From the NCBI GenBank assembly GCA_018268995.1, contig JAFDVL010000046.1, forward strand, positions 117,715 to 181,714: a stretch of 64,000 nt of DNA, written 5' to 3'. The DNA comes from Acidobacteriota bacterium. GTDB lineage: Bacteria; Acidobacteriota; Blastocatellia; RBC074. Positions 19,953-56,570 of the stretch are shown here, one piece after another; positions within the stretch are counted from its first letter, which is position 1; every line of letters starts with the position of its first letter. The notes under the pieces are model-generated. The model was not told the DNA's origin. It did no database searches and saw nothing but the letters and a program-made list of their open reading frames with translations. Position numbers and translations under genes: made by a program.

Positions 19953-20023
19953 AGAGTTGACACAGAGAATCACAGCGGGAAACTCTGCGTGTCTCTGTGA
20001 TTCCTCTGTGCCTCTCTGTGGTG
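19947..20023. repeat. CAGAG-rich imperfect palindromic element, copy 1 of at least 2
   Basis: CACCACAGAG...cacagagaatcacag...ctctgtgattcctctgtg...CTCTGTGGTG. The terminal 10-bp inverted repeat is perfect and there are internal CACAGAG/CTCTGTG units. It lies at the 5' end of the solute-binding-protein ORF. Confidence 0.55.
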
Positions 20024-20053
20024 AAAAAAGGTTTTCGGTTTTACTCATCGCTT

Positions 20054-21151
20054 TCACACCAAAGTTTTCCCTGTCGCCATCTCAAACAACTTCGCCCGCT
20101 CCAGGTCGAACACGAGTTCAATCTGCGCATCGGTTTGTGCCTGTGTGCGGGCGGGCAATCGCACCGTGATTTCGGTGGTGCCAACCGAGCAGGTGGCAAT
20201 CACTTCGCCGCCTAACTGTTCCAGGATTTCAACGCGCGCACTGATGGAATTTCCGTCGCCAGATTTTTCGTGAATGTCTTCAGGTCGGATGCCGAGCACG
20301 GCTTTTGCGTCGCCATTCTGAAATGCCGAGGCAAGGACAGGGAATTTGCTGAGCGGCATTTTTAGATTGATTCCATCACTGACGACAAACCAATCGTTGC
20401 CGCGTTTTTCGATTTCGCCGCTGATAAAGTTCATTGGCGGCGAGCCGATAAATCCCGCGACGAATTGATTAGCCGGGTTGTTGTAAATTTCCAGCGGCGC
20501 ACCGATTTGCTGCACAACGCCGCCTTTCATGACAATCAAGCGGTCGCCCATACTCATCGCTTCGACCTGATCGTGCGTGACGTAAACCATCGTGGCTTGC
20601 AATTGTTTGTGCAGCTTGATGAGTTCGGCACGCATTGTGACGCGCATCTTAGCGTCGAGGTTGCTGAGCGGTTCATCGAAGAGGAAGAGCTTTGGCTGAC
20701 GCACAATCGCGCGCCCGACCGCGACGCGTTGCCGTTGCCCGCCTGACAGCGCGCCGGGCTTGCGTTGCAGGTATTCGGTCAGTCCCAGCACTTTCGCGGC
20801 ACTGTTCACCCGCGATTCGATTTCGGTTTTGGCGAACTTACGCATCTTCAGACCGAACGCCATGTTTTCAGCAACAGACATATGCGGGTACAATGCGTAA
20901 TTCTGAAACACGAATGCGATGTCGCGGTCTTTCGCGTGAACGGCATTGACGACTGCCTTATCAATGCTGATTTCTCCTTCCGAGATTTCTTCCAATCCCG
21001 CAATCATTCGCAGCAATGTGGATTTGCCGCAGCCCGATGGCCCGACCAGAATCACGAATTCGCCGTCGGCAATCTCTGCATTGACTTGAGATACTGCGCG
21101 CACATTGCCTGCATAAATTTTGGAGACATTACGGAGCGTCAAAGTAGCCAT
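20054..21151 (-). CDS. Sugar ABC transporter ATP-binding protein (MalK/UgpC/MsmK family)
   Basis: Contains Walker A (GPSGCGKST), the ABC signature (LSGGQRQR), Walker B ([11 protein letters not shown]) and a C-terminal MalK-like regulatory domain. Start taken at the ATG at 21151 ([13 protein letters not shown]); the ORF track starts at 21175. Confidence 0.85.
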
Positions 21152-25727: not shown

Positions 25728-25904
25728 AGGCGACAAATATAGTTTGCCGTTCAGGTCGGACGCAAACCCGGTTCGCGCTTTACGATTTTGTCTGAACAGC
25801 CAGGAACTTCTGGTTGCCTCCACTGGTGAGCCTTTCTTGTTTGTGTTGCCGACTGGTATGATGCAAATGGGAACAAGATTTGGCTGTTAATAAAATTTGC
25901 TGTT

Positions 25905-30494: not shown

Positions 30495-33400
30495 TTATCG
30501 AATTTTTACGGTGAAGCCTACGGTGCCAGTATTATTTGGAGATAAATAAGATAGGGTGCCCGCCGTAACCCGCCAGCGAATTGCCCGGACATTGCGATCA
30601 TATCCTGAATCGGCGCTGCCTCCGCCGCTGGTTGGCGTGTAGTTCCAGGTGGCTGAGCCGGGCGAGGCCGAAGTGTAATCGTTAGAATACTCAACCGTGA
30701 TCGTCAGTCCGGTCGTAGCGGGGTCAGTTGTCACAGAACTAAGTTTAAAATCTGTATTATTGGGAATTGGATCAGCGATTACTAGGGACTGCGCATTGCT
30801 GCCGCCGCTATTGGTAAATGCAATCGTATAATTAAGATCCGTTCCAGGTGGTTGTGAAGCCGTCAGGCAATTCGCTGGAACCGGGCAATTTTTGACGAGC
30901 GCTATGCTGGGGGGCAAAGCAAAGGCGACTTGAACACTGGCGGCGGAAGATTCTTTGGTCGCATTGTCAATAACAATAAAGGATATGGTTACTGTTACAG
31001 CTCCATCTGTGGGATCAATGCTAATAATGTCGGCAGGTAGTGCTCCACTCACCGCCGCAATGGTTACCCCTCCAACAGGAAAAGTACCAGAAGTGTAATT
31101 CGTGCCATTGATTGTGATGCTGGTTGCGTTGGAAGGAAACGCGGTGAACTTAAACGATGCAATCGTTCCATCAGGATCGCTGCCAGTGAAATGTGTTGAT
31201 GGAACTGTCACTAATGTTGTGCCGCCAGGGTTACTTTGACTGGCCGGATTGGTTGCAGTCGCCGTAGGCAATTGCTCAATGCCAAAATCTCTTCCTGTAA
31301 TATTGCTGGTCGAAATGTTGAAAGCTGAGGTTGCGAGAGGCGAAGTGTTCGTCCAGCCTGTTGGTACACCCGCTGTGGGAGCTGCCGAACCAATCGTTCC
31401 TGCGCTGGTTGCAAGTTGGATTGTAACGTTAGATTGGTTTCCTGCCACATTGCTAAAGGAATAAGTTCCATCGTTGTTAACGGGGGTCGTTGCTACCACA
31501 TTTCCACCAGAACTGACTAAAATTGCGTGCAATGCGCTGCCTGCATTGGTTCCCGTTTCAGCACCTGTGTTGATATTGGTGAAGGTATTATTCGCACTGT
31601 TATCCGCATCATCCCAGACTTTACCGGAAACAGTTACAACGGACGTCACGCTGACGGTTGTTGGATCAGTCCCTGCGCCCTGTGTTTGCGCAATGCTGCT
31701 GGATGGCACTGTGACGCCAGACGGTAAGCTGCCCGTCGTGCTATCCACGTTGTCCGTGTTTACGCCACTAACTGAAATTGTTGATCCCGTCGCATTTGCC
31801 TGATTACTTAAAGTGCCGGAGAAGCCGGATGTCACCGTCGTCGGAATCGCAACAGTGATAACCCCACTATTGCCGAGCGTCGCGCCAGCAGCGAGCAGAT
31901 TGCTCACTGCTCCTGACGCCGCTCCCGTGTACGAATTATTTTTGCTCGCACTTGTGCCCGCTCCTGAAACAGTGACCGTTTGCGCGCCAGTTGATGTGAT
32001 TGTGACGCCTGCGGGAAGGGGATCATTAATTTGAAAACTGGAGGCCGCGTTTGACGTTGTATTTTTATAGGAAAGTGTCCAGGTCAACGTATCGCCGGGC
32101 GTCACCGAACCGGTGCCGTCGGCATCAGTCGTGAGTTTGACGGATTTGTAGCCATTGACGACTGCATTGACAGTGGTGGTCGTCGTATTGGTTGGAACAC
32201 CTCCGCTTGGTTCATCCAGATAATTAATGACGCCACTATTATTAACCACGCTCGGCGGACTCGAAGAGTTGACCGTGACTTGATAGGTGATTGTCGCACG
32301 ATTGGCGTAGCCGACTTTAATCGCACCTGACGAAGCATTGCGGCCACTGATTGAGTACGCTGATCCAAAAGGGTAGGACGCGGCCCCTAGACTGGTTCCA
32401 TTGAGCGTTGCACTGTTGGCCACATAGGTTGTTCCGCTGGGAAGGCTATCTGTAAACGTCATGACGACAGCCGGCGCATTTCCCGTATTTTCGATTTCAA
32501 TCGTGTAGGTGAGTGTCGCACCGGGATTCACATTGCCTGTGGGGCTCACCGATTTCGTCGCAACTAAATTGGGATTAATGTTCGGTGAGTTCCCGCTGGC
32601 AAAGTCCGTGACCACGTTGCCGGAAAGCGCAGACCCCACTTGGACAGCGGACGCATCATTCAGGTCAACCCGGTAAATGGTTGTTGTGGTGCCGCTGATA
32701 GAGGAAACTAATAAGTTGCCTGAGGAATCAAACGCGACACTGACGACTGTGTTGGATGCAGTGCTGAGTGGAGTTCCACTGACGCTGATTTGTCCAATTG
32801 GATAGGCTTTGATCGGGCTGGAGTTGAAGTCCATCCGATACAGGGAATTACCGAAAATTCCCCAACAGTGGCTGTTGCCATCAAACGCAATGTCTCCGCT
32901 GGCGGTGGAACCGGAAGGCGATGTCCCTTGAAAGCTGACAGCTCCCCGCGATGTGATGGTTGAGGGAGCCGTGTTGGTGAACGAAAAAATATTGTTGTTC
33001 CCATCAATTGAATAACCCGTCGAACCATTAAAGGCCATGCGTAACGTGACGTTGCTGCTGGTTGTGCCCGGAAAGGTTCCGATAGAGCCGGATTCAGTTG
33101 TCCCGTCATAGCGGCGCAATTGATTGGGCGAGGTTGTGCGGTCTGCGTAATACAAGGTTTGTGTCGCGGCATCAAATCCCATCCCGGAACTGCCGCCCAC
33201 CGCTGAGGTGTAAATCGTGGAAGAAAGCACACCCGTTGTCGGATTAATCGTTCGGATATTTTTATTATTGGCGGTTGCCGTTCCTTCGATGACATAGATC
33301 GCTGTCGAGCTTAAAGTCGCCGCTATTGCCTGATGCTTTAAGCTCAGTGTGACGAATAGTGGATGAAGCGCGAGCAGCGCACATAAAACGCGACTAAAAA

Positions 33401-33500
33401 AGCGGCGTAAATACGAATCGGCAGGCCGTTGAAGCTGAGGTCGCGGCCTCTTCCCCTTAGTTTGTTTGTGCGGGGGCTTCCCGCCGTAAAAACGAATCAT
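30495..33500 (-). CDS. Large secreted DUF11 (conserved repeat domain, TIGR01451-like) repeat protein; S/T/G/N-rich surface protein
   Basis: 1001 aa with DUF11 signatures (GATLTYTIEIENTGNAPA...). Its C-terminal ~110 aa is near-identical to that of the upstream paralogue (NYTIAFTNSGGSNAQSLVIADPIPNNTDFKL...RAIRWRVTAG...GTVGFTVKIR). It overlaps the upstream gene by 4 bp. Confidence 0.7.
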   Translation of the reverse strand: MIRFYGGKPPHKQTKGKRPRPQLQRPADSYLRRFFSRVLCALLALHPLFVTLSLKHQAIAATLSSTAIYVIEGTATANNKNIRTINPTTGVLSSTIYTSAVGGSSGMGFDAATQTLYYADRTTSPNQLRRYDGTTESGSIGTFPGTTSSNVTLRMAFNGSTGYSIDGNNNIFSFTNTAPSTITSRGAVSFQGTSPSGSTASGDIAFDGNSHCWGIFGNSLYRMDFNSSPIKAYPIGQISVSGTPLSTASNTVVSVAFDSSGNLLVSSISGTTTTIYRVDLNDASAVQVGSALSGNVVTDFASGNSPNINPNLVATKSVSPTGNVNPGATLTYTIEIENTGNAPAVVMTFTDSLPSGTTYVANSATLNGTSLGAASYPFGSAYSISGRNASSGAIKVGYANRATITYQVTVNSSSPPSVVNNSGVINYLDEPSGGVPTNTTTTTVNAVVNGYKSVKLTTDADGTGSVTPGDTLTWTLSYKNTTSNAASSFQINDPLPAGVTITSTGAQTVTVSGAGTSASKNNSYTGAASGAVSNLLAAGATLGNSGVITVAIPTTVTSGFSGTLSNQANATGSTISVSGVNTDNVDSTTGSLPSGVTVPSSSIAQTQGAGTDPTTVSVTSVVTVSGKVWDDADNSANNTFTNINTGAETGTNAGSALHAILVSSGGNVVATTPVNNDGTYSFSNVAGNQSNVTIQLATSAGTIGSAAPTAGVPTGWTNTSPLATSAFNISTSNITGRDFGIEQLPTATATNPASQSNPGGTTLVTVPSTHFTGSDPDGTIASFKFTAFPSNATSITINGTNYTSGTFPVGGVTIAAVSGALPADIISIDPTDGAVTVTISFIVIDNATKESSAASVQVAFALPPSIALVKNCPVPANCLTASQPPGTDLNYTIAFTNSGGSNAQSLVIADPIPNNTDFKLSSVTTDPATTGLTITVEYSNDYTSASPGSATWNYTPTSGGGSADSGYDRNVRAIRWRVTAGTLSYLSPNNTGTVGFTVKIR

Positions 33501-36025
33501 CGAATTTGTACCGTGAATCCGACATTGCCTGTGTGATCAGGAACTGTCGGACTTAAATTGCCCGCTGTGACACGCCAACGAATTGCGCGCACGGTGCGAT
33601 CATAGCCAGCAGCAGCAGTGCCGCCGCCGCTGATCGGCGTATAGCTCCACGTTGCAGCGCCAGGTGCCGCAGAGTTGTAATCACTCGAATATTCCACCGT
33701 TATCGTTAAGCCTGTTGAGCCAAGAGAGGTGAAAACCGATCCCACCTTAAAATCGGTATTGGCTGGAATCGGATCAGTAAGACTCAGCCTTTGTGCGGCT
33801 AATCCGCCTGAGTTCGTGAAGACAATTGTGTATGTTAGGTCTGTACCTGGCGCTTGTTCTCCGATGGGCGAAACATTTTTTGTCAAGCTCACATTTGGCG
33901 TAGATACCAAAACTGGCGCGGCGGCAGTGATGTTAGAAGCTAAACTGGTGGAGCCATTGTTATAGTCCACCTTGGCATCATTGGTGTATGGCGTCGTAGA
34001 GACTGGCACCCCGCTGCCTGCGGTCGCCTGAAACTGAATCGTGAAGGTTGCCCCAGCCGCTAAAGTTGGCGGCGAAGGGATTGTGGCGAAATCCCATTTG
34101 ACCTCTTGCCGATTATCTGACGTGTAAGGCAACTGCGTTGGGGGCGCAGTGACAGTGGGTGTCACGCTGGTAATATTGGTGAACACACTAGAGCCAGTAA
34201 CAAAGTTAAAGCGTGTGTTGGCATTAAGTGCGCCGCCTGCTGTGGGCAGAAAATCATAAACGACCAGACTACTAGCCGCAGCGTTCCCGGTGTTTGTCAC
34301 AGTGATTGTGTAAGTTACCGTGCCACCAACGGCAATGGCTGATGGAGTAACGCTCTTGGTGATTTGCAGGTTTGCTGTTGAAGAAACCACAGAGGCCGCA
34401 TTAGACGTTACTCCGGTTGGCACTTGCGAACTGGTCAAAAGAGCCTGATTGATGACCGTATCGCCGTTCCCTGCATTGGTCTGTACATCGAATTCAACTG
34501 CACCGCCACTGCCCGCGCCAAGGCTGGCAATCATCTGAAAGGTAAACGTTCCGCCTGCTGTTGGGCTGGCAGGCGAAATGGGCAAGATGTTTGCCCCACT
34601 AATGACGCTGAGGTTACTCACCGAGCCGGCAGCCGTCTGCGAGGGCAGAGTGTCAGTCAACAGCACATTCGTTTGCGTTGTGACCCCGCTGTTCAGATAG
34701 GTGATGCGGTAACGTATCTTGGCATTGGCCGGAATATTCGCGCCGTTGGAGGCCACGCCGTTCACTTGCACGATTTGTTTGAGGACGTAGAGATTAGAGT
34801 TGTTGTTGGCTACGCTCGGTACGTGATAACGCCAACTGTTATCGTTCCCCGCTTTGCCCGCTGCTTCGGCGGAATCGCCTCCATAGACCTCTGAATTCAG
34901 CACCAGTCCATTCACGGGCGGATTAACCGTCAGGCGCAGACGCAGCTTAACGTATTTGGTTTGCCCCACGACCAATTGTCCGACCGCCCAACGGACGGCA
35001 TTCGTATTGGAAGGAAGCGGACTTGCCTCCGACAGACTCCAACCGAAACTTGTATAACTTCCTGCGATGTAGGTTGAACTGTCAGTTGGGCCGCCCGCAC
35101 TTTCAGGGTATGAACGCGTTGTCGAAACCGCCGGGCCGTTGGGCGTCCCAATCCGGGACCCAAAGTAGGAAATGCGCCGCCAAGGGCCGATATTTCCGGT
35201 ATTGTCTAACGTGTAACCGGAATCCGGGCCAGCCACGGCAGAGCCTGCATTGAAGGGAGTTGCGCCTGTGCCCGACGAAAGAGAGGCCGCCGCAGATTTT
35301 GGATTGGCCGTCGAAGAAATAGCTGCGGATGTGGAGCCGAAGGCATTAGCCTGATCCGCATCCCACAGGTTATGCGTTGTGGCACCGGCTTGCCCAATGA
35401 TGGGATTAAGCTGGGATTCGCCAGTAGGACTGATGTTGTAGCCGTTCGTCCCTTGTCGTGCTTTGCCATCAGCATCGGGCGATGTATAAACCGCTGTCCG
35501 CGCATCTGTCGAATAGAATATCCCGGTATCCGCGTAAATCTCTGCCAAACTGCCATTACATCGTCCCAGCGGCTGGCCTGCTGTGGCACAACGCGCATCA
35601 TAGTTTCCACTGAAAGGCCCGGTAAAGGTTCGCTGCCCACGTGGTCCCCAACCATTGCTGATCGGGCCAGGTAAATCAGGGGCAGTGGACGAATAGCCAC
35701 CGCTGCCATTGGGTTGCACGATTTCAGCTCCGACTACCTCTGTGCCAGCCGGGATATAGGCCGTGACATAACCGCCTGCGCCGATAGTGGCGTTATTCGC
35801 AACCGGAGAAAATTGAATGATATATCCCACCACATCACCTGCGCGCAGTCCCGGCGACCCACCGCTCGCGCGTGTTTGCAGCAGTTGCACAGTTTCCGGT
35901 GCAAAAAATACGGTGGTTTGTACTTGCGCCACGTTGTGCGCCGAGACCCAGAAAACGACTCCAAATGAAAGGCCGATTAGCAGGGTACTTACCACCACTA
36001 ATCGAAGTCGCCATCGTTTGTGCAT
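33497..36025 (-). CDS. Large secreted DUF11 repeat protein, paralogue of 30495-33500
   Basis: Start taken at the ATG at 36025 (MHKRWRLRLVVVSTLLIGLSFGVVFWVSA, a signal peptide or anchor). DUF11 cores are present (TVTYTITVTNTGNAAASSLVVYDFLP). It shares the conserved C-terminal domain (YTIVFTNSGGLAAQRLSLTDPIPANTDFKV...RAIRWRVTAGNL...GNVGFTVQIR). Confidence 0.7.
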   Translation of the reverse strand: MHKRWRLRLVVVSTLLIGLSFGVVFWVSAHNVAQVQTTVFFAPETVQLLQTRASGGSPGLRAGDVVGYIIQFSPVANNATIGAGGYVTAYIPAGTEVVGAEIVQPNGSGGYSSTAPDLPGPISNGWGPRGQRTFTGPFSGNYDARCATAGQPLGRCNGSLAEIYADTGIFYSTDARTAVYTSPDADGKARQGTNGYNISPTGESQLNPIIGQAGATTHNLWDADQANAFGSTSAAISSTANPKSAAASLSSGTGATPFNAGSAVAGPDSGYTLDNTGNIGPWRRISYFGSRIGTPNGPAVSTTRSYPESAGGPTDSSTYIAGSYTSFGWSLSEASPLPSNTNAVRWAVGQLVVGQTKYVKLRLRLTVNPPVNGLVLNSEVYGGDSAEAAGKAGNDNSWRYHVPSVANNNSNLYVLKQIVQVNGVASNGANIPANAKIRYRITYLNSGVTTQTNVLLTDTLPSQTAAGSVSNLSVISGANILPISPASPTAGGTFTFQMIASLGAGSGGAVEFDVQTNAGNGDTVINQALLTSSQVPTGVTSNAASVVSSTANLQITKSVTPSAIAVGGTVTYTITVTNTGNAAASSLVVYDFLPTAGGALNANTRFNFVTGSSVFTNITSVTPTVTAPPTQLPYTSDNRQEVKWDFATIPSPPTLAAGATFTIQFQATAGSGVPVSTTPYTNDAKVDYNNGSTSLASNITAAAPVLVSTPNVSLTKNVSPIGEQAPGTDLTYTIVFTNSGGLAAQRLSLTDPIPANTDFKVGSVFTSLGSTGLTITVEYSSDYNSAAPGAATWSYTPISGGGTAAAGYDRTVRAIRWRVTAGNLSPTVPDHTGNVGFTVQIR

Positions 36026-36142
36026 AACACGAGGTTTACCGTTTTTGCCTGGATGCTTGACGTTAATTGAAGATGGTAAAAAGTCTCTTCTGGCTCGTTG
36101 CATACACCTAAAAATGGAGGCTCATCTTGGTTCAACTCAAAT

Positions 36143-39100
36143 CTACTCTTGCTGATTATTTGACGTCGTTTTTGCTGGTGAGGCCTTGATTTCATTTGGC
36201 AAATTCGACTCGTGGCCTACTAAACCATCGGGTGCTGTGCCGAATAAATTGAACATATTCGAGAGCTTTGACGACACCACGAAGTAAAAGCCTTTGCGCG
36301 TATTTACGTTACTGTTGAGGTTGCTAAAGCCTCCGAAGTATCCCGGACTTTCCTTCATCTGCGTGAAGTTATAGCCACCCGCCAGACGCAAATCTGACAA
36401 TGCCCAGAAGCCAAGTTCTGTTCCTATCGAAGTGCGACGTGATCCTGTACCTGAAAGCCACAACGCGCGAATTTCGCCTGCCAGATCAAAGTATTGCGCG
36501 AACCGCCATTCGGCGCGTCCCTGCATCAATGAGGTTATTGTGCCGACGACAGGCAATCCATCGCGTCCCGTGCGGTTGAATTTCAGGGCGTAACGTCCGT
36601 ACAGTTCCACTCGGCGCAGCGGTTGATACAGTCCATCAATTGCCAGCACGGTGTCGCGATCCAGCAAAGGCTGAAAACCCTGCCGCGCGCCCTGCTCAAT
36701 CGAACGGAAGTTGTAGCTCAGCAACAACGCGGTTTTATCAGATTCCAATGGACGCCAGGCGAGTGCCAATTGCCCGTTCATCATCACGTTGCTGGCCTGA
36801 TTTTGAAACGCTGTGCGCGAATATTGCACCCGCCCCAGCGACGTCCAGCTCTCGCTTAATTTGCCTGCGGCTCCGACCGTGAAGATGTTGCCGAAACCGT
36901 ATAAATCTCGCAGTTCGTAACGCGCTGCCGAACGGAAACTATCCGTCGGGTTATAGTTGAATCCGAACATCGCGTTATTGAAGCTTTTGCCATTGCCGCG
37001 CAGGTGCAATCCGCGTTCATAGCCCGCGTCCAGCGAAAGCACTTTGTTGATCGGGAAGCGATTCAGCAAACCAATCACCGCAAAACTGTCTGTGCCATTG
37101 ATGCCGTTGTTGATCTGATACCGCCCGCTCATCGTCGTGTATTTATTGAGCGGCGATTCGACGCCGACAGCGGTTTCACGACGTGAAGCGGTTTCAGCAA
37201 ACCCAAACGAACTGACATCGCTGATGGCTGTGATTGCTTGAGAAGCAAGGCGTTGCGTGAAGAAAATCTTGGCCAGCGAATTGACCTGATAGCTGGCCGC
37301 GACCGTCGTTTGATCTGGATAAGTCGGGTCAGAGTCACCCAGATTTTGTTCGCGTTTGACAGCAACGCTGATTTTGTCATTCGGACGATATTCCGCGCCC
37401 GCCGTAATCAAATTTGATGTGACCTCGCGGCCAGCAAATTGTGAAGCCGTGGCGGTTGGCGGCGTAGTTGCCGTGCCTGTTGCATCCGCGTTGGCGTTGG
37501 CATTATTGGCCAGCGCGCTGCCCGCTTCGTCCTTGAAGGTGCGATAATCGTAGCCAAGGCTGAACCGTAATTTATCACCGTAAGATTGAATCCACCCGAT
37601 GGAACCTGTGCGGCGGCTGTTGTTGAAATTGGCCGTCCGGTTGCGTTCATCGGTGAAGCCAACGCGCATTTGCGCCGATCCGATGGGTTTCAAATCGAGC
37701 GCGACTGAACCGCGTTGCGAACCTGGCGTAATTGTGGTGCCAAAGGGATTGAAGAAGCTGCGATCTGACCGGGCAAAGCTGGCTTGTAACTGTGCTTCTC
37801 TGAAACTGAGCGGTTGGCGATATTCGGCGCGATAGGCGTGTCCGTTGTGCTCACCGTTGCTGCTGTTCAGGCTGCCGGCCAAACCGTCGAAACCAAAATA
37901 GCTACCACTGGAAGCGACGCGCCCATTGCTCATGCCCCATTCGAGTTGCAATGAACCGCTCTTGCCAATTTTCTTTTCCACGTCAACGCCGCCCAGATAG
38001 AACGATCCGAACGTTTCCTGTCGCTGGTCAATGAACGACGTGCCAATGCGCAATCCTGCGCTGTTGAAGTTCTTCGATCCGCGCCCTGTGTACACCGCAG
38101 AATTCATGCCGACTGCGCGGTATTCGTATGTCGCGACGATTTGCACCAGATTCAGCGCGTAATCAAACGTCGAAATCGGGCGCATGAAGTAAATCGAACC
38201 CAGGTACGGATCAAGGTTGTAATCCACCGAACGCACCAGAACCTCGCGCTGCAAAATGATGTCGGGGTTACGCCGATCACGAACTTCGCGGACGATGGTT
38301 TCGGTGCCCTGCAAAATGTCCGTGTGCGAAAGTCGAATTAACCCCAATGTGCTGCCGGGGAACACATCGCGTGAAAACGATGTGTCAGGACGCGCACCGG
38401 AAAGCGTGAGGGAACTGCCGCCTGCGGTTTCCAAATGGACTTTGACGCCCGTCAGGCGGCGGTTGTAGCCCGTCAATTGCGGGCCTTGATCGGCGAACAC
38501 AGGGATCGAATTGAAGTTATTCAGAATCGAATTGCCGATGCCTGCGCTGGCCAGATTTTCAGCCAGATTCGTCACTGCCGTCGGCGTGTAGCTGTTGTTG
38601 ATGTATTCCTGCTGGCTCGCATCGAAATCGCCGAACATCGCATATGAACGACCACGATCAATGCGCGCATAGAGCTTGGAATTGGATTGCGCATCTTCAA
38701 ATCGCGTCGAGGAATCACCGAAGATGGGATAGACGCGATCCAACGGATCAAGGAAAAATGTGCGGTCACGTCCTGCTGTGCGCGTCAACGGACGAAAGCT
38801 GTTGTAGGCCAGTGTCAATTGCGAAGTCATCGGCAACGGCCCACGGAAATAGAATTCTGTGTGATGCCGATAATTCTTGTCGCTGCCACTTGCTGCAATA
38901 TCCGGCGCAGCTTTGCCGAAAGATGCTTCGGCTAATCCAACCAGAATTTGCGGGCGCTGTTCGGGCGTGATGCGAATCAGCCCCTTGGCCTGCAAATCGC
39001 CACTGAATGCGCGGATTTCGGCATTGCCGGGTTGGCCTTCGCCGATCAATTCAATCGTTGCTTCTCCGTTATCGAGCGAGAGAATTTGCTGGCGATAAGC

Positions 39101-42100
39101 TGCGCTGACCTGTTCCGCCGAAAAGCCATTGACCGGTTCCGCACCCGCGCCAATTAAGGGCGAACGTAATTTCTCGGCTTCTTCGCGACTGATGTTGCGC
39201 GCATTTGCAATCGTTGCGATGCAATCATTGGCCTCGCCTTTTTTGCTGGCTGTGCGTTGGCAAACCGGAGCTGAAGCGGAGCTTGGCTGGTTGGTCGGTC
39301 GTGATTCAGAGGGGGTTGCCGATGGCTTTGGATTATCAGCTTCAGCGTTGCTGATTTGATTGGCCGACCGCAGCAACCGCCCGGCAGAAATTTGCAATCC
39401 GACTTGTCCGCTCATCGCCGGATTACCCCACGCGTCATACGCTCTGACACGAACCATCGTTGCGTCGCGTCCGCCTGATTGAATTTCTTTTTTGTCAGTG
39501 ACGATTTCCAATCGTGAAGCCGGGCCGCGTCCCATCACGGTTAAGTTGACGGCTTCACCCGGCGCACCATCGGGCGAGAGCGCGATGACTTTCAATTGAT
39601 TCGGGCCGGGCTTGAGATTGATGCCGACAAAGACGAAGGTCGCAACTTTGTTTTTGCGATCAATTTCTTTGACGCCGATGTTTGTTTCAGGAATGCGTTG
39701 GCCGCCGATTTCCAGCGCGACGCTGTAATCCATATGGACGCGCGCTTCAACACGCAACGCGGTTTCCATCACCACTTCGTTTGCTTCAGGCGACAGCACT
39801 TCGATTTTGCCCGGCTCGACAGGCTTGATGTTTTCCGTTGATGTTTCGTTGTAAGTGCCAGGTGCCTTGTGGCCGTTCTTGCCAACGTTCATGGCCGCGA
39901 CGCCCGCGCGTGTTTTCGGTTCGCTGCGTTTATTCAGAATGCGGTCAAACGCGCCGCCGAGGACAGAATCATCTTTAGTTGTTGTTCCTTTGCCTGTGCG
40001 CACTGATTCTGCGCCTGCCTCTTCGCCTCTCGCTTCATTGGCTGCTTTGTTGGTTGCCCAGATTGAGGCGAGCGATCCAGTAGCTGATGTCGCAGGTGTC
40101 GCACTGGAAATGCTGGTTTCGACTGCGCCGACATCGGTCACAGTTTCGGTAATGGGATTGATGTTTTTTTCCAGCGCGAAATTGACACGATTCAATCCGC
40201 CTCCGCCCAGCGGCGTGCGTACCAGGCGCGTCCAACTGCGCCCGGATTTTTGTCGGTTGTCCATCAGACTGTAGCCGCGTGGCACGGTGATTGGATCGAG
40301 CGAAACCACGGCTGCGCCTTCTTCAACAGAAGGGAAGTTATACAGCCCGTGCGAATCGGTGATGACCGACATACCGTTGTTCAGGTAAACGCGAGCGCCC
40401 GTCACCGCCCGATCACAGGCTTCAAATAAGCCGTTGCCGTTCGTGTCTTCAAATACGCGCCCGATGATGATTTGCCGCATCGAAAACGCGCCCAATCCAA
40501 CTAACACAGGCGCTTTGGCGGGTTGCGTGCGAATCGGATCGCCGTTTGGATATTTGGCTTCAGCATAGGCCAGATTGACTTGCTCGCCCTCTTTGGCGTT
40601 CGCCCCAACGCGCAGGCGATAAGTAACTGTGACGCGTGCGCCCGCAGGCAAATCGCCGACTTTGAAGGTCAGACGATTGTTGGCAATGGTTGGCTCAACG
40701 CTCAGAATCGCGCCGTCAATTTGAATGCGCGCGGTGCCAGGCACATACAAAAACGATTGCGGCACTGTGTCTACCAGCACAACATCCGTGAACTTCGTTG
40801 CCGTTGCGTTGTGTGCTTCCAGCCGATACGAAACTGTGTCGCCGATTTCTGTGCGTTGCTTGTCGGCAACTTTGGTTAGTTGCAGCGTGGCAGTCTCGAA
40901 CATCGGAATGTTCATGACCAGCGCAGAGATGTCCGTCAGCGTCACGCCCGAAGTGGTGAGTGCAAAGCTGCCTGCCTGCGCAATTGGTTGCCCGTCCAAA
41001 CTGCGCACATCTACTTTGAAAAGCCCTCCGGCTGTGGGTTCGATCTTAATTTCGAGCACACGTTCCCGATAACCCTGTGCTGCGACGTGAATGTAATACG
41101 TGACAGGAGCGCCGGGAGCGCCAACCTGATTGGGCGCAAAGGCGAAAGCGAAATGTCCCTGCCCATCAGACAGGAATGGATTGTCGTTTTTATCGTTTGG
41201 CGAAAACCCTCCCGTCGGCATTTGTAAAGGCGCTTTGCCTTGCGGATCGGTTGAGACCAGCACCGTGGCCCCGGAAATCAAAATGCTGCCGTTGCTGTAG
41301 CCCGCGTAAACCGTGCCTTCAGGATTGATGACAACGACGGTTCGCGCGGTTCTGATGGCTGTGCCGATGTTGTCACCCGCGACCTGTGCGGTGTTGATGA
41401 CGCCAACGCCGGGTTTGACGTTGCTGTTCAGCCGAGCCTGAAATGCGACGCTGACAATCTGATTGACCGCGACGCTGGCCAATTTGACTTCCAGGCGGCG
41501 ACTGTTGATGACGTGTGCAATGTCGCCATCAATCGCGTCGGTCAGGGAGACATCACCGATCTTCATTGTGCCGGGCATGTAATCCAGCTCCGGCGGCAAA
41601 TCATCCGTCAGCAAAACGTTAATTGCAGGGGTCGTACCACTGTTCCGAAAATTGATGCTGTAGTTAAGAATGGCACCTGCGGTCGAAGTGATGTGATCTT
41701 TGTTCTCGACGTATTTGACGGGCGGCAGCGCGGGATTGGTGGGGTCGGTAACTTTCGTCCCTTCTCCGCCTTTATTGATGTTTGTGCCCGTGTCAGTTTT
41801 GTTGTTATCAACTTTTGACTTGGCGGTCAGGCCAATGGTGATGACTTCATCCAGCTTGATTGCACCTGTGTCAACGATGACAAGAATGCCCAGACACGCG
41901 CCGGGTTGCATCGTTGGCGTCAGCGTTGAATTCAATGAAACCTGTGTATCGCCTGCGGTGAGTGTGCCGCTGCCGTCAATATCCCAGTAAAGCGCGGAGA
42001 TGGTCGAAGGCGGTGTGATGGTTGTTTGTGTCAGCGAATATTGATCGGCCACGTTGCCCGTATTGCAAACGCGAAACAGGCGAGTGACCTGTTCGTTGGG

Positions 42101-42340
42101 CACCATGATCCCGGTGGGTTGCGTGTCATCCGGCGTAACGCTGAGGCTGACGACGGCAATCACCGTCAGGCTGACGGGATTGGAAGAAACCTGATGATCA
42201 TTGCCGCCAGGATCGCTGTAGGTTGCGTGTGCCTGATTGGTAATGACTACGCCTCCTGTTCCGCTGCTTTGTGCCCAGGCTGAGGACGCACAAAACAGCA
42301 GGACGGCGAATAGAATTAGCCATGAATTATGCTTGGTCAT
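36143..42340 (-). CDS. Giant (2065 aa) outer-membrane protein: signal peptide, N-terminal DUF11 and SdrD-B/CnaB-like domains, and a C-terminal ~900-aa predicted beta-barrel
   Basis: N-terminus MTKHNSWLILFAVLLFCASSAWAQ, then ITNQAHATYSDPGG...SLTVIAVVSLSVTPDD (a DUF11 start motif) and GRVFEDTNGNGLFEACD (an SdrD B-like motif). The C-terminal half has alternating hydrophobic amphipathic strands rich in Y, R and G (RVGFTDERNRTANF, RFSLGYDYRTF, MSGRYQINNGINGTDSFAVIGLL, LAIDGLYQPLRRVELYGRYALKF, IGTELGFWALSDLRLAGGYNF), typical of outer-membrane beta-barrels. Confidence 0.75.
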   Translation of the reverse strand: MTKHNSWLILFAVLLFCASSAWAQSSGTGGVVITNQAHATYSDPGGNDHQVSSNPVSLTVIAVVSLSVTPDDTQPTGIMVPNEQVTRLFRVCNTGNVADQYSLTQTTITPPSTISALYWDIDGSGTLTAGDTQVSLNSTLTPTMQPGACLGILVIVDTGAIKLDEVITIGLTAKSKVDNNKTDTGTNINKGGEGTKVTDPTNPALPPVKYVENKDHITSTAGAILNYSINFRNSGTTPAINVLLTDDLPPELDYMPGTMKIGDVSLTDAIDGDIAHVINSRRLEVKLASVAVNQIVSVAFQARLNSNVKPGVGVINTAQVAGDNIGTAIRTARTVVVINPEGTVYAGYSNGSILISGATVLVSTDPQGKAPLQMPTGGFSPNDKNDNPFLSDGQGHFAFAFAPNQVGAPGAPVTYYIHVAAQGYRERVLEIKIEPTAGGLFKVDVRSLDGQPIAQAGSFALTTSGVTLTDISALVMNIPMFETATLQLTKVADKQRTEIGDTVSYRLEAHNATATKFTDVVLVDTVPQSFLYVPGTARIQIDGAILSVEPTIANNRLTFKVGDLPAGARVTVTYRLRVGANAKEGEQVNLAYAEAKYPNGDPIRTQPAKAPVLVGLGAFSMRQIIIGRVFEDTNGNGLFEACDRAVTGARVYLNNGMSVITDSHGLYNFPSVEEGAAVVSLDPITVPRGYSLMDNRQKSGRSWTRLVRTPLGGGGLNRVNFALEKNINPITETVTDVGAVETSISSATPATSATGSLASIWATNKAANEARGEEAGAESVRTGKGTTTKDDSVLGGAFDRILNKRSEPKTRAGVAAMNVGKNGHKAPGTYNETSTENIKPVEPGKIEVLSPEANEVVMETALRVEARVHMDYSVALEIGGQRIPETNIGVKEIDRKNKVATFVFVGINLKPGPNQLKVIALSPDGAPGEAVNLTVMGRGPASRLEIVTDKKEIQSGGRDATMVRVRAYDAWGNPAMSGQVGLQISAGRLLRSANQISNAEADNPKPSATPSESRPTNQPSSASAPVCQRTASKKGEANDCIATIANARNISREEAEKLRSPLIGAGAEPVNGFSAEQVSAAYRQQILSLDNGEATIELIGEGQPGNAEIRAFSGDLQAKGLIRITPEQRPQILVGLAEASFGKAAPDIAASGSDKNYRHHTEFYFRGPLPMTSQLTLAYNSFRPLTRTAGRDRTFFLDPLDRVYPIFGDSSTRFEDAQSNSKLYARIDRGRSYAMFGDFDASQQEYINNSYTPTAVTNLAENLASAGIGNSILNNFNSIPVFADQGPQLTGYNRRLTGVKVHLETAGGSSLTLSGARPDTSFSRDVFPGSTLGLIRLSHTDILQGTETIVREVRDRRNPDIILQREVLVRSVDYNLDPYLGSIYFMRPISTFDYALNLVQIVATYEYRAVGMNSAVYTGRGSKNFNSAGLRIGTSFIDQRQETFGSFYLGGVDVEKKIGKSGSLQLEWGMSNGRVASSGSYFGFDGLAGSLNSSNGEHNGHAYRAEYRQPLSFREAQLQASFARSDRSFFNPFGTTITPGSQRGSVALDLKPIGSAQMRVGFTDERNRTANFNNSRRTGSIGWIQSYGDKLRFSLGYDYRTFKDEAGSALANNANANADATGTATTPPTATASQFAGREVTSNLITAGAEYRPNDKISVAVKREQNLGDSDPTYPDQTTVAASYQVNSLAKIFFTQRLASQAITAISDVSSFGFAETASRRETAVGVESPLNKYTTMSGRYQINNGINGTDSFAVIGLLNRFPINKVLSLDAGYERGLHLRGNGKSFNNAMFGFNYNPTDSFRSAARYELRDLYGFGNIFTVGAAGKLSESWTSLGRVQYSRTAFQNQASNVMMNGQLALAWRPLESDKTALLLSYNFRSIEQGARQGFQPLLDRDTVLAIDGLYQPLRRVELYGRYALKFNRTGRDGLPVVGTITSLMQGRAEWRFAQYFDLAGEIRALWLSGTGSRRTSIGTELGFWALSDLRLAGGYNFTQMKESPGYFGGFSNLNSNVNTRKGFYFVVSSKLSNMFNLFGTAPDGLVGHESNLPNEIKASPAKTTSNNQQE

Positions 42341-42437
42341 TTCCCGTATTCCGTTTTCTATGTATTCATTTTTCAGTTGGCACTGTGGCAGCCCTGACTG
42401 CCACAGTTACCAATGACCAATGACCAATGACCAAAAG

Positions 42438-43958
42438 TTATTGTTTGATTTTGCGCTTGAAGCGAAACGTGCCGGATTGCCCACCAGCTAATGTACCAAC
42501 AGTGTCCACGTATTTGCTGTTGGCCACGCCACCCGTGCTATTGCTGATGGTGATGGTGCCGCCGCGCGAATCAGATTCAGTGCTGGCGACGCGATCCGTC
42601 GTGGTGGACCAGTTGTTGGGCGAAACATCGCCATCTTCTGTGATGACGACCAGCAACGCGTCCAAATCCACATTGCCCGTTCCCGTCGGAGCATTGGCGA
42701 TATTGTCGTAGGCAATGACATATTCAATATCTGCTCCTGGCACTGCATCCGTCGCCCCACCCACGCCTGTCGCATTTGTCACAGTCGCGGTCTTTACCAA
42801 TCGCAGATAGCCCGTGTAAATGCGGTCAATCGTATTATTGGTTTGTGTGGGATCAGAAACAGAGACGGCTTGGATGATAGTTTCGTAGGCCGTTAATGCG
42901 GTTGCTCCGCCCGGCAAAGTGATACGTACTTTGTAGTTGGAGTTCGCACCCGACGCGACCGATGCTGTGGTGACTTCCGGTGTACCACTGGGGGAGCCGT
43001 TCGTGATGACCTCAGTCCAAACCGTGCCGCCATCAATACTGATTTCGACTTTGGAACCTGCGGGCGCACCGCTGGTGGCGACTTTCAGCTTGAACGTGTC
43101 TGCTCCGTTTCCGCCGTTTTTGAAGGTGTTGTCGAATATGACGGGCGTGTTCGTTGTCGCGGCGGTGACGGCTTTATTTGTGTAGTCCGTGTTGGTGCTT
43201 GGGCCTGGGCCGACGGCATCAGGCTGGCCACTGGGGCCATTCGTGACGGTTGCCACGTTGCTCACGGTCATTGTGATGTCACCTTTGGCTTCACGTTCGC
43301 CATTCACGGCGGTGATGCTGCCTGGATGTTTAGTATGAACTTCGTGCGTCGAATTGTTGGCGCTTTGGTTGTCATACGGGGAACTGCCTGTGGTGTCACC
43401 TAACTCGACCTTAATCGTTTGACCCGCAGATGCCGCTCCGCTGACGGTGACTTTCACGACGACCGCAACAGCGCCGCTTTGTGCCAGCGAATGCGTGGCG
43501 GCAGCTCCGTTGCCCTGAATGTCAACGTCCGTGCCAGCATCATAATTTCCATTGCCGTTCACATCCACGAACGCCTGCGAAACCGTGCCCGGCCCGGTGA
43601 CCTGAATGCTTGCGCCGCTGGCCAAAAACTCTACATTGTCGGTGAAGTTGCCAAGGTTCGTGACCGTGAAGGTATACGTTGCCGTCGAACCCGGCGCAAC
43701 AGTTGTCGCAGGGGTGCTTCCGTCAGGCGTGATTTGCAATCCTGCCACATAAGAAACGGTAGTTGTCACTTCATTTGAAGTGGCGCTGTATTTGGTCGGA
43801 TTGGATGGATCATCCGTATAGGAGGCGGATGCCTGGTTGCGGATTACGGTTCCGCCTGCGGTGGCCTGCGCATAAGCACTGCCAGTCAATGCAACGAGGG
43901 CAACTGTGCCCAACAGCACCTTGCCCCAGAGGTCATGTTTCCTCGTCATCTTCATCAT
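42438..43958 (-). CDS. Secreted DUF11 repeat protein
   Basis: Start taken at the ATG at 43958 or 43955, preceded by AGGAG (MMKMTRKHDLWGKVLLGTVALVALTGSAYAQA, a signal peptide). The sequence TVIRNQASASYTDDPSNPTKYSATSNEVTTTVSYVAGLQITPDG has the same N-terminal motif as the giant protein. Further DUF11-like units follow (TATYTFTVTNLGNFTDNVEF). Confidence 0.7.
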   Translation of the reverse strand: MMKMTRKHDLWGKVLLGTVALVALTGSAYAQATAGGTVIRNQASASYTDDPSNPTKYSATSNEVTTTVSYVAGLQITPDGSTPATTVAPGSTATYTFTVTNLGNFTDNVEFLASGASIQVTGPGTVSQAFVDVNGNGNYDAGTDVDIQGNGAAATHSLAQSGAVAVVVKVTVSGAASAGQTIKVELGDTTGSSPYDNQSANNSTHEVHTKHPGSITAVNGEREAKGDITMTVSNVATVTNGPSGQPDAVGPGPSTNTDYTNKAVTAATTNTPVIFDNTFKNGGNGADTFKLKVATSGAPAGSKVEISIDGGTVWTEVITNGSPSGTPEVTTASVASGANSNYKVRITLPGGATALTAYETIIQAVSVSDPTQTNNTIDRIYTGYLRLVKTATVTNATGVGGATDAVPGADIEYVIAYDNIANAPTGTGNVDLDALLVVITEDGDVSPNNWSTTTDRVASTESDSRGGTITISNSTGGVANSKYVDTVGTLAGGQSGTFRFKRKIKQ

Positions 43959-44076
43959 TTGCTCCTGATAGGTTTTTGATTGGGCTCTGGCCGTTGATAA
44001 CGCAGGCAGATTGAGTGGAGCTGCCAAACACCCGGTTCCAACGAGAAAATCCAATGAATATGAAAGCTTGTCTTGA

Positions 44077-44574
44077 TTATTTCACGCGGACTTTATACAT
44101 CGCGGAAACTTGTTTTCCTTCGTTTAGCGGATCATTCCATTCGTAGCGAATATGGGTGTACATCGTCGCTGGCGCAGGCACTTGACGATAAGAACCGTCG
44201 GGCTGCTTTTGTTCAATCGTGGGTTTGGTCGAATACGTCTTTCCCTGATCAATGCTGAAGAAAATCGTTGCATTCCCGCCTGCTTTTGCACTGCCACCCA
44301 CATACGCTGTTCCCTGCGGGATTTCGCCGACAGTTTTGTAATTATGCGCCGGAGCATTTCCGGCATTGTGTGACAGGATCGTCCAGTTCAGGACTTCGCC
44401 TGGATTGAGCAGGCCAGCTTTATCAATCTCAATCGCCTGATTTTCGCGCTCGACCGTACCTGTCAGCACGACTTTGACTTCAGGCCGGACGGCCCACATG
44501 GCGAAAACGCTGCTGGTGATAACCACGGCGGCCAGAGAGCTAAGAATCAGGGCGCGATGTTTGTTAAGTTTCAT
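44077..44574 (-). CDS. Small signal-anchored single-domain DUF11-like protein, first gene of the cluster
   Basis: Start taken at the ATG at 44574 (MKLNKHRALILSSLAAVVITSSVFAMWA). The segment GEVLNWTILSHNAGNAPAHNYKTVGEIPQGTAYVGGS has the DUF11 pattern (..Y.I.V.N.G.A.A.N....D.LP.G...V..S). Confidence 0.55.
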   Translation of the reverse strand: MKLNKHRALILSSLAAVVITSSVFAMWAVRPEVKVVLTGTVERENQAIEIDKAGLLNPGEVLNWTILSHNAGNAPAHNYKTVGEIPQGTAYVGGSAKAGGNATIFFSIDQGKTYSTKPTIEQKQPDGSYRQVPAPATMYTHIRYEWNDPLNEGKQVSAMYKVRVK

Positions 44575-44882
44575 ACGGGTTTTTCCTTTGGTTGAAATGC
44601 AGGGGCAGGAAGTCACTTGCCGGCTTGGACTGAGGCCAGCATGGTCACAAGGACAATTTCTGTGCCAGTTTTGTCATTGCTTTGCAATCATTCGATAACT
44701 TGCAAGATGACTGAATTTAGACGCGCTTTCACAACAATGATGAAACTGACAGATTGACAAAAACTGACAAGCTTGACTGACAAATTTGGGCAAATTGTGG
44801 CGAGCATCAATCAGGTTGGAGTGTACGGCAGCCGCGAATCCATCTATAATCAGCGCTTATATTGTTCCCCCTGAGAATGCTT

Positions 44883-45539
44883 ATGCCAAAAGCGAATGGG
44901 ATGAAAGTGCTGATTTCATTATTACTTTTGCTGACAACGACAATTGCCGCATCAGCCTCAGAATTAGATCAACTAATTACTGGATTACAGGCAAAATATC
45001 AGCGGCTCAATACTTTGACGGCGGATTTTACGCAAATCTACAACGCGCCGGGCGAACGCACGCGCCGCGAAAGTGGCCAAATGCAACTCAAAAAGCCGGG
45101 CAAAATGCGTTGGGATTATGCCTCGCCAGAATCCAAACTGTATGTTTCGGATGGCAAAACCATCTATGAATACATCCCGGCTGAACGGAGCGCGACACGC
45201 ACCAGCGCCAAGGAAACTGATGATTGGCGTGCGCCTTTTATGTTTTTGCTGGGACGCGGCAATTTGCGCCGTGATTTTGCGCGCATCGAATTTGCCAATG
45301 AATCCCCGGTGCGGGCCGGAAATCGCGTGCTGCGCATGATTCCGAAACGAAGCTCAGACATTCGAGAATTGCTGATTGAAGTTGAGCCAAAATCTTTGGG
45401 GCTGGCGCGCTTGTCACTGATCAAACAGGGTAATGCCAGAATTGATTTTCTGCTGAATAATATGCAGGAAAATGCTGTCATTGCCGATACAGCGTTTGTC
45501 TTCAAACCGCCCGCAGGCGTTAGTGTGCGGCAGCAATAA
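44883..45539 (+). CDS. lolA: Outer-membrane lipoprotein carrier protein LolA-like
   Basis: Signal peptide MPKANGMKVLISLLLLLTTTIAASA, then LTADFTQIYNAPGERTRRESGQMQLKKPGKMRWDYASPESKLYVSDGKTIYEY, a LolA-family signature. The start is ambiguous (44862, 44883 or 44901). Confidence 0.7.
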   Translation: MPKANGMKVLISLLLLLTTTIAASASELDQLITGLQAKYQRLNTLTADFTQIYNAPGERTRRESGQMQLKKPGKMRWDYASPESKLYVSDGKTIYEYIPAERSATRTSAKETDDWRAPFMFLLGRGNLRRDFARIEFANESPVRAGNRVLRMIPKRSSDIRELLIEVEPKSLGLARLSLIKQGNARIDFLLNNMQENAVIADTAFVFKPPAGVSVRQQ

Positions 45540-56302: not shown

Positions 56303-56320
56303 GAAATGATCCTTTCAAAA

Positions 56321-56570
56321 TTCATTTTGTCGTCAACAGTGACCGACAATATAGTCCAGCGAGCATCCTTCATTTTGTCGCTGAAAGCGACGCACAATAT
56401 AGCCCAGCGAGAATCGCTGGGAAAGCGGTACAACGGGATTCCGTCGCTGAAGGCGACAAACAAAATGCCAAGGTTGAATTTGTTGCTCGCCTTCAGCGAG
56501 CGGGCGTTTATTGATCGTCTACCCAGCGCTCCTCGCTGGGCTATGTTGTTGGTCGCCTTCAGCGACTCAA
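56321..56570. repeat. REP/BIME cluster 1, with about 4 units in both orientations
   Basis: The unit is GTCGCTGAAGGCGAC (a 5-bp-stem palindrome) plus (C)AACAATATAGCCCAGCGAG-GATCGCTGGG. Forward copies lie at ~56377-56421 and 56442-56456, and a reverse copy at 56521-56566. The cluster abuts the RAYT gene. Confidence 0.7.

Follow-up and report, generated by a model that had tools for sequence, protein, structure and literature searches.

A candidate surface fibre assembled through split CLIPPER (DUF11) domains and anchored by a predicted giant outer-membrane barrel in an Acidobacteriota bacterium

SpyTag/SpyCatcher and SnoopTag/SnoopCatcher are artificial splits of Gram-positive adhesin domains (CnaB and RrgA D4, respectively), in which a peptide carries one reactive residue and a truncated domain the other two, and the halves reconstitute and ligate spontaneously. 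The BsaA fibres of Clostridium perfringens combine donor-strand exchange with an intermolecular N-E-K isopeptide bond (10.1101/2024.11.04.621531), and archaeal threads (Saci_0406) have Asn57 bonded to the N-terminal amine of subunit n+2 (PMC9715654). The DUF11 domain, renamed CLIPPER in 2025, was found by crystallography to be a CnaA-like immunoglobulin (Ig) domain, and a complete CLIPPER domain, typical of fibrillar-adhesin stalks, includes an intramolecular Lys-Asn isopeptide bond with Asp as catalyst (PMC12617251). Here, a cluster of five genes for secreted proteins, designated P5 to P1 in their order along the minus strand, was analysed in a 64,000-nucleotide (nt) stretch (the window; positions 117,715 to 181,714 of contig JAFDVL010000046.1, assembly GCA_018268995.1) from an Acidobacteriota bacterium of the Blastocatellia. 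The locus probably (at a probability of about 0.6) specifies a diderm surface fibre built from several subunits, or a modular adhesin, and the subunits would be joined by complementation of split CLIPPER domains.

P5, P4 and the two tail proteins, P2 and P1, each finish in a CLIPPER domain that breaks off in the loop ahead of its final two strands, with the chain ends ...YKVRVK, ...FRFKRKIKQ, ...GFTVQIR and ...GFTVKIR, respectively. In the complete CLIPPER domains located inside P1, P2 and the giant protein P3, the equivalent strand leads through a short loop into two more strands with the pattern [IV]xNxAxAxY...SxxVxxxV. The mature N-termini of P4 and P3 match the absent hairpin of two strands, conserved Asn included, and pass directly into the first strand of the next domain. 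By sequence, P5, P2 and P1 are acceptors only, P4 is a donor and an acceptor, and P3 is a donor only. Since four proteins end without the last two strands and two begin with them, the set would have the polarity of tip, shaft and terminator subunits, and P4, which includes donor and acceptor in one chain, would be the sole subunit able to polymerise head-to-tail.

In the proposed assembly, a donor hairpin would enter, in trans, the truncated C-terminal domain of the neighbouring subunit on the distal side, to give the order tip (P5, P1 or P2), P4 (one copy or a polymer) and P3 as the base. It is likely that the subunits join by split-domain complementation of this kind, and the join could plausibly be locked by an intermolecular Lys-Asn isopeptide bond, like a natural SpyTag/SpyCatcher pair. 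The variable N-terminal heads of P1 and P2 would provide alternative adhesive tips, and the C-terminal barrel of P3 would anchor the fibre in the outer membrane. P5 might act as a cap or an initiator, or hold donor hairpins in the manner of a chaperone.

Artificial joins of acceptor and donor were scanned with hmmscan. P5 alone matched DUF11 at positions 13-57 of 114 (20.6 bits), and P5 joined to the P4 or P3 hairpin matched at positions 13-104 (26.7 bits) and 13-111 (27.7 bits), respectively. In DUF7927 alignments, the chimeras covered positions 74-126 of the 132 in the profile, across the artificial junction. The P4 C-terminus joined to the P4 donor matched DUF7927 at positions 37-126 of 132 and gave no match without the donor. 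Addition of a donor raised the DUF7619 score of the P2 C-terminus from 18.3 to 28.7 bits and that of the P1 C-terminus from 24 to 35.4 bits, and the P1 chimera also gave a DUF7927 match that spans the junction. When hhalign was used with a 132-column reference profile of complete internal CLIPPER domains from 67 giants, the tails aligned with columns 14-93 and ended there, the P4 end aligned with columns 76-93, and the donors with columns 104-129.

A local hidden Markov model (HMM) of the internal CLIPPER domain was used to compare acceptors joined to their cognate donor or to a shuffled one at about 50 loci, in six acceptor-donor combinations. The cognate donor scored higher in 44/48, 39/49, 55/57, 52/56, 46/51 and 45/49 cases, i.e. 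in 85-96% for five combinations and in 80% (39/49) for the sixth; the value of 55/57 was obtained with the P4 acceptor. The end of the alignment was shifted from columns 53-96 to columns 125-129 in five of the six combinations; with tail acceptors joined to the donor of the giant, it stayed near column 57.

The chain ends are maintained in homologues from related genomes. The donor motif lies directly after the signal peptide in 61 of 62 complete giants and in 57 of 58 P4-like proteins; it is present in none of 58 P5-like proteins and in none of the tails at the mature N-terminus. Matches of the donor regular expression in some tails are 54-85 residues into the protein and were discarded as false positives. 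The P5-like chain end Y.V.V. was found in 50 of 58 homologues and the P4-like end ...F.R.I[K/N] in all of 40, and 57 tails share the conserved C-terminus ...SPNN.GSV.F.VRI[RK]. In the AlphaFold2 (AF2) model of P4, the N-terminal 40 residues form two bulged strands, modelled as four short ones (E8-11, 14-18, 26-30 and 34-37), with a predicted local distance difference test score (pLDDT) of 80-90, and modelling as strands at this level indicates a hairpin that is packed against something.

In P1, P2 and P3 the Lys/Asp/Asn triad is found at the expected positions of the internal domains, and in the terminal domains it is split between two chains. All three residues are at least 90% conserved in the complete internal domains of P3 homologues (K490, D524 and N589 in P3 of the window). 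The donor Asn is likewise conserved at ≥90% (118 donors), as is the first-strand Lys of the acceptors in the P5, P4 and tail families, and the catalytic position is occupied by Asp in tails and Glu in P4. Asn41, Lys389 and Glu441 of P4 (precursor numbering) are invariant in 40 homologues, and Lys34 is conserved in P5. As the domain following each donor hairpin has I-T-P-D and no first-strand Lys, the donor Asn is without a neighbouring partner in cis. These residues are consistent with subunit joins sealed by a covalent Lys-Asn isopeptide bond, the chances of which we put at slightly below even.

Several points weigh against the proposed assembly. The score gains from added donors were modest (4-11 bits), and the loci in the local HMM test are phylogenetically related, so that the statistics overstate their independence. 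A higher score would follow from appending any genuine C-terminal hairpin of a CLIPPER domain; beyond the score, it is collinearity and the points at which the chains stop that carry the argument. There are four acceptor types and only two donor types. The canonical acid position in P5 is Gly in Blastocatellia, which makes a covalent lock at P5 doubtful. Analysis of coevolution in P4 by average-product-corrected (APC) mutual information (176 homologues; effective number, Neff, 76) gave scattered top pairs, with a clade split dominant, and no information on contacts between the N-terminal hairpin and the C-terminal domain.

Among the described systems, chaperone-usher pili (type 1 and P pili; FimH-FimG/F/A-FimI with the usher FimD/PapC) resemble the proposed assembly in that an incomplete Ig-like fold is completed by the N-terminal extension of the more proximal neighbour. 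They also share with it an acceptor-only tip (FimH-like), a dual shaft subunit (FimA-like), a donor-only terminator (FimI/PapH-like) and a large outer-membrane barrel in the operon. However, the predicted fold in the cluster is the CnaA-like CLIPPER and not a pilin, and the predicted donor is a two-strand hairpin rather than a single strand. Furthermore, the barrel has ~30-38 predicted strands compared with 24 and no sequence relation to the usher, the putative terminator is fused to the barrel, and a covalent lock is plausible. The usher family (PF00577) was not detected in the five proteins or their neighbours, and no PapD-like chaperone was found in the five proteins, the flanking genes or the related loci. 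The initial annotation of this DNA, made from the sequence alone, had compared the cluster to an usher-adhesin or pilus-like assembly with unrelated domains; the truncated CLIPPER ends and the complementary hairpins support this comparison, and the role of the barrel as an usher is one that we infer.

The 'exchange and lock' of BsaA is, by analogy, the closest functional precedent; there, a segment at the N-terminus of one subunit enters a beta-sheet of its neighbour, and a spontaneous isopeptide bond between the two fixes the join. The logic of a donor Asn with an acceptor Lys and Glu would be the same, the corresponding residues in the cluster being N41, K389 and E441 in P4, N35 in P3, and K/D in P1 and P2. 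However, BsaA is Gram-positive, has a TasA/camelysin-like fold, depends on SipW, lacks an outer-membrane barrel and forms homopolymers, whereas the subunits of the cluster are graded. Neither a TasA/camelysin-like fold nor a SipW-type signal peptidase was among the Pfam and NCBIfam matches of the five proteins and the neighbours scanned. The archaeal threads (PMC9715654) share with the proposed fibre chaperone-free donor-strand complementation, an intersubunit isopeptide bond and a putative cap gene next door, but they are archaeal, have no outer membrane or barrel and belong to an unrelated sequence family. In the CLIPPER domains of fibrillar adhesins (PDB 9IFR; PMC12617251), which are of the same family, the bond is formed within one domain of one chain. 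The terminal domains of the cluster are instead divided between two chains, and a bond of this type would therefore connect subunits. Unlike the artificial Spy and Snoop pairs, the cluster would represent a natural split of a CnaA-like domain that serves assembly.

Type Va and inverse autotransporters (intimin/invasin) similarly combine a signal peptide, an Ig-like surface passenger and a membrane barrel in one chain, but the P3 barrel is approximately three times larger, partner subunits are present, and the barrel is a separate gene in another phylum. Neither the 12-strand autotransporter barrel (PF03797) nor an intimin barrel family was among the matches at E≤0.01. Features of sortase-dependent pili were not seen, as there is no sortase in the cluster or its neighbours and the C-termini lack an LPXTG motif or hydrophobic tail. 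Those of type V pili (FimA/Mfa of Bacteroidota) were also not seen, there being no lipobox Cys at the cleavage sites and the donor being N-terminal and not C-terminal. More generally, the lack of a recognisable chaperone, sortase, type 5 secretion system (T5SS) or type 9 secretion system (T9SS), remarked on in the initial annotation, held in Pfam and NCBIfam scans of the five proteins and their neighbours. A literature search, which did not reach most subscription journals, yielded no earlier account of the operon, of its barrel family or of a CLIPPER domain that is split. Judging from the sequences, we rate the system as outside every described assembly family, though built on known principles.

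Table 1. Features of the cluster and its candidate regulator; coordinates are positions in the window.
Feature	Coordinates	Strand	Description
P5	44077-44574	minus	165 aa, secreted, single-domain
P4	42438-43958	minus	506 aa, secreted, ~four Ig-like domains
P3	36143-42340	minus	2065 aa giant; predicted donor hairpin, stalk and barrel
P2	33497-36028	minus	843 aa tail protein
P1	30495-33500	minus	1001 aa tail protein
P4 donor hairpin (predicted)	43746-43868	minus	mature residues 1-41, QATAGGTVIRNQASASYTDDPSNPTKYSATSNEVTTTVSYV; Asn41 (precursor numbering) codon 43836-43838
P3 donor hairpin (predicted)	42152-42271	minus	residues 24-63, QSSGTGGVVITNQAHATYSDPGGNDHQVSSNPVSLTVIAV; Asn35 codon 42236-42238
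P4 C-terminal acceptor domain (predicted)	42441-42842	minus	truncated, CLIPPER-like; Lys389 (42792-42794), Glu441 (42636-42638)
P2 C-terminal truncated CLIPPER domain	33500-33898	minus	Lys717, Asp752
P1 C-terminal truncated CLIPPER domain	30498-30911	minus	Lys870, Asp910
P3 barrel region (predicted)	36146-38893	minus	aa 1150-2065; ~37 predicted strands
Candidate regulator	27858-30020	minus	720-aa membrane protein, 474 nt downstream of P1

The five consecutive minus-strand genes and their signal peptides, as originally annotated, were both confirmed, the latter by eye. The N-termini of P5, P4, P3, P2 and P1 each show basic and hydrophobic stretches together with an AXA-like site, and look like Sec signal peptides. 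The further claim that all five proteins include DUF11 modules held for four. P1, P2 and P3 are above the cut-off of the Pfam profile PF01345 (now CLIPPER) with 41, 62 and 59 bits, respectively, and no other protein of the cluster is; the same three match the NCBIfam profile TIGR01451 at 72-78 bits. P5 scored 19.6 bits against the Pfam profile, under the cut-off of 24.6, and passed with TIGR01451 only (25.7 bits compared with a cut-off of 24). P4 has no DUF11 match in Pfam or NCBIfam, and no Pfam match of any kind; it is 100% identical to a protein from an NCBI metagenome-assembled genome labelled 'Acidobacteria bacterium'.

The AF2 model of mature P4 (pLDDT 92.4; predicted template modelling score, pTM, 0.76) is an all-beta string of Ig-like domains, which retrieved generic tandem-Ig proteins in Foldseek. 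P2 consists of a variable N-terminal region, complete CLIPPER domains and the truncated C-terminal one. Its TIGR04226 match (48 bits), like that in P3, denotes the isopeptide domain only. In P1, an N-terminal region of ~300 amino acids (aa) with no Pfam or NCBIfam match, a candidate binding head, precedes CLIPPER domains and the truncated C-terminal domain. The C-terminal 133 aa of P2 are 64% identical to P1, and residues 3-130 of P3 are 35% identical to the P4 N-terminus. Searches of PDB sequences with the chimera, the barrel profile and the P4 profile gave as sole match a meaningless cadherin. The first full domain of P4 and P3, which follows the donor hairpin, has an invariant I-T-P-D in its first strand, where the usual Lys is replaced, and P4 further includes invariant L-G-D...F-D-N-Q motifs (T47, P48, D49, D158, D166 and N167 of mature P4). 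These residues could form a metal site or another type of cross-link.

P3 includes, in order, the signal peptide, the donor hairpin, a CLIPPER/SdrD_B stalk (aa 1-725), a low-complexity linker (726-839), Ig-like domains and the large beta-barrel. The barrel-like C-terminus noticed in the initial annotation was modelled from residues 1150-2065 with a 30-sequence alignment, and the last ~900 aa model as an outer-membrane beta-barrel of ~30-38 strands. The model has ~37 beta-strands over about 860 residues. Its confident part comprises aa 1415-2023 (residues 266-874 of the fragment; nt 36272-38098) with pLDDT ~70-90. As the pTM is 0.47 and the modelling is poor over the first ~265 residues of the fragment, strand number and closure of the barrel are uncertain. 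The barrel has no sequence relative in Pfam, NCBIfam or PDB; by contrast, another outer-membrane protein in the window (10330-13989) matches OMP_b-brl_4 at 502 bits. Homology to the barrels of SprA, LptD, ushers or autotransporters was rejected, since none of these families was among the HMM matches. In a profile search of 1.84 billion cluster representatives, relatives numbered 3544 at E≤1e-3 and 1763 at E≤1e-30. Big_1 domains adjoin the barrel in some P3 homologues. In one locus (L091:9001-15213), a peptidoglycan-binding OmpA domain is found C-terminal to the barrel, which suggests that the barrel C-terminus is periplasmic and that, in some lineages, the base is attached to the cell wall.

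Conservation of gene order was examined in 80 species-level Blastocatellia/Pyrinomonadaceae loci by tblastn and calling of open reading frames (ORFs). The closest related loci are those of Blastocatellia. Wherever the contig is long enough, the same order was found, namely a gene for ~165-175 aa, one for ~500-750 aa, a giant of ~1850-2100 aa and one or two tails of 437-1544 aa. This order of small, mid, giant and tail genes is kept in about 60 species-level Blastocatellia genomes, and Vulcanimicrobiota, Moraxella and Smithella also have the small-mid-giant core, flanked on one side or the other by tail genes; conserved gene order, a check named in the initial annotation, was thus observed within the class and beyond it. 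None of the three outcomes named there as refuting was obtained. The number (1-2) and length of tails vary widely among genomes, as expected for exchangeable adhesive heads. P2 is an additional tail. In the five nearest relatives the giant is followed directly by a P1-like gene, and P2 matches only the C-terminal domain of the latter.

The named groups with members of the barrel family are Vulcanimicrobiota (Eremiobacterota), Moraxella osloensis, Smithella (Thermodesulfobacteriota) and Candidatus Wallbacteria. In Moraxella osloensis (complete chromosome CP083409.1, 794390-820422), the locus encodes a tail of 1593 aa, a small protein of 158 aa, a mid protein of 908 aa and a giant of 2010 aa (WP_224054489.1). 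The small-mid-giant trios of Moraxella, Smithella and L091 have the same donor and acceptor ends. Moraxella osloensis, which is cultured and human-associated, is a tractable model for the system.

Three Vulcanimicrobiota loci have five genes each, for an acceptor-only protein of 164-165 aa, a donor and acceptor protein of ~740-800 aa, a donor-only protein of ~711-734 aa, a barrel protein of ~1100 aa with its own signal peptide, and an acceptor-only tail of ~845 aa. The donor-only protein aligns end to end with residues 1-725 of P3 (E 1e-84), and the barrel protein aligns with residues 840-2030 (E 1e-72). The boundary between these two genes coincides with the P3 linker (nt 39824-40165), a low-complexity segment of ~110 aa rich in Ser/Thr/Ala/Gly/Lys/Glu. 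Because the two parts are separate genes in Vulcanimicrobiota, P3 appears to have arisen by fusion of genes for a terminator subunit and a barrel through this linker, or the Vulcanimicrobiota arrangement by fission.

Three other giants of 3300-3850 aa (L084, L089 and L090) consist of a long CLIPPER array and the same barrel, and start with an ordinary complete CLIPPER domain. The donor hairpin and the small and mid partner genes are absent from these loci, and probably from a further one (L002) with an apparently frameshift-split ORF. In this small sample, the donor hairpin and the partner subunits appear to occur together or not at all, and the barrel family would therefore have self-contained and split multi-subunit forms. 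In L090, a 5.5-Mb metagenomic contig, a gene of the sortase family (PF04203; 8195-8788) lies directly upstream of the giant of 3852 aa (9001-20559), and a sortase adjoining an outer-membrane-barrel adhesin is unexpected.

The same joining of split domains could also produce a fixed three-piece adhesin, in which each P3 carries one P4 and one cap (P5, P1 or P2) and P4 is never added to P4, giving a stalk of defined length with exchangeable heads. The consistent difference between the only two donor types, N-R/H-A-E-A-T-Y...S-P-T-V in P3 and N-Q-A-S-A-T-Y...S-N-T-V in P4, hints at specific pairings, and the single-chain giants of 3300-3850 aa show that a finite stalk is viable. On the other hand, P4-like proteins have both donor and acceptor in every lineage examined, which is the hallmark of a polymerising subunit. 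No sequence feature forbids the joining of P4 to P4, and the chimera of P4 acceptor and P4 donor gives a Pfam match. A fixed stalk is considered unlikely. Less likely still is a pile-up of paralogues, with P3 as a self-sufficient barrel-anchored fibrillar adhesin, P5, P4, P2 and P1 as separate secreted or periplasmic DUF11 proteins, and the truncated ends and hairpins as domain variants that fold alone or in cis. Such an origin would fit the existence of stand-alone CLIPPER and barrel giants without partners, the confident AF2 model of the P4 monomer, N-terminus included, the small gains in HMM score, and the missing canonical acid of P5. It leaves unexplained why four proteins end at one loop of one domain in at least four phyla, and why the acceptors retain Lys and Asp/Glu without an Asn partner in cis. 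Nor does it account for the Asn in the P3 and P4 hairpins although the next domain reads I-T-P-D, or for the confinement of donors to genomes with partner genes.

The barrel could alternatively act as a giant autotransporter of type Va topology that exports only the N-terminal passenger of P3 itself, the partners reaching the surface otherwise, or being released, and then being captured outside by the exposed P3 hairpin. P3 does have an N-terminal passenger and a C-terminal barrel, and the single-chain relatives, which have no further dedicated gene close by, must themselves export the passenger they carry. However, no other export component is found in the operon in any lineage, and no autotransporter or other known barrel family was matched in P3. 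Moreover, the donor-only stalk of Vulcanimicrobiota is separate from the barrel and is not a covalently attached passenger; as this stalk is a separate polypeptide, the barrel must handle at least one protein in trans. Export restricted to the passenger of P3 is therefore regarded as very unlikely. For the fibre joined by split CLIPPER domains, the barrel is the best candidate for the export pore, being the only outer-membrane component in the operon and a polypeptide separate from the stalk in one phylum. That it exports the partner subunits is plausible on these sequence grounds, yet not quite an even bet. Since Ig domains that are cross-linked cannot be unfolded, such a pore would have to have a wide lumen. 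A broader and more tentative proposal, which we hold to be less likely than not, is that of an undescribed class of Gram-negative pili across phyla, with enzyme-free covalent ligation via split CLIPPER domains, and with export and anchoring by a ~36-strand barrel that combines usher and terminator and requires no periplasmic chaperone.

The intergenic gaps P5-P4, P4-P3 and P3-P2 are 118, 97 and ~114 nt, respectively, and P2 and P1 overlap by 4 nt. A scan of the locus for promoters and terminators gave counts at or below those expected from shuffled sequence, and operon boundaries were accordingly judged from spacing. The ToxR/CadC-like regulator with a TolB-like sensor that had been annotated downstream is present on the same strand (Table 1), with an OmpR/CadC-type DNA-binding domain (Trans_reg_C, 62 bits) and a PD40/TolB-like propeller (PD40, 102 bits). 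It is, however, syntenic with the cluster only in five loci of the closest clade, so the link between the two is weak, and a role as a core part of the system was rejected. A divergent LolA gene (44862-45539) borders the block upstream; it too adjoins the cluster in the nearest clade only and was rejected as a component.

Elsewhere in the window, a minus-strand cluster at 4481-13989 encodes a 1219-aa outer-membrane protein with CarboxypepD_reg and OMP_b-brl_4, two TPR proteins, a multihaem cytochrome c (paired CXXCH; 6697-7857) and a 739-aa protein without a Pfam match, and may be an outer-membrane redox or uptake module. Genes for a 587-aa TPR protein and a 604-aa FG-GAP/ASPIC (UnbV) repeat protein overlap by 4 nt on the minus strand at 22249-25823 and are not linked to the cluster in other genomes. 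The region 56000-60608, around the gene for a 1052-aa Eco57I/MmeI-like fused restriction-modification enzyme (57450-60608), has a GC content of 0.45-0.46, compared with about 0.50-0.55 elsewhere, which suggests a horizontally acquired island.

If the proposed assembly is correct, diderms would possess a new fibre-assembly pathway beside chaperone-usher, type IV, curli and type V pili and type 5 secretion. Its components would have no detectable sequence relation to these pathways and would be spread over thousands of sequence clusters that range from those of soil Acidobacteriota to Moraxella osloensis. The barrel family, which has no Pfam model or solved structure, would rank among the largest single-chain barrels known. 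A natural split of an intramolecular-isopeptide domain would serve as a self-ligating connector and would bear on the evolution of giant adhesins by fission and fusion. Since P3-type and P4-type donors differ consistently, new orthogonal Tag/Catcher pairs may also be obtained. For the poorly studied soil Acidobacteria, the system would offer a first route to surface attachment.

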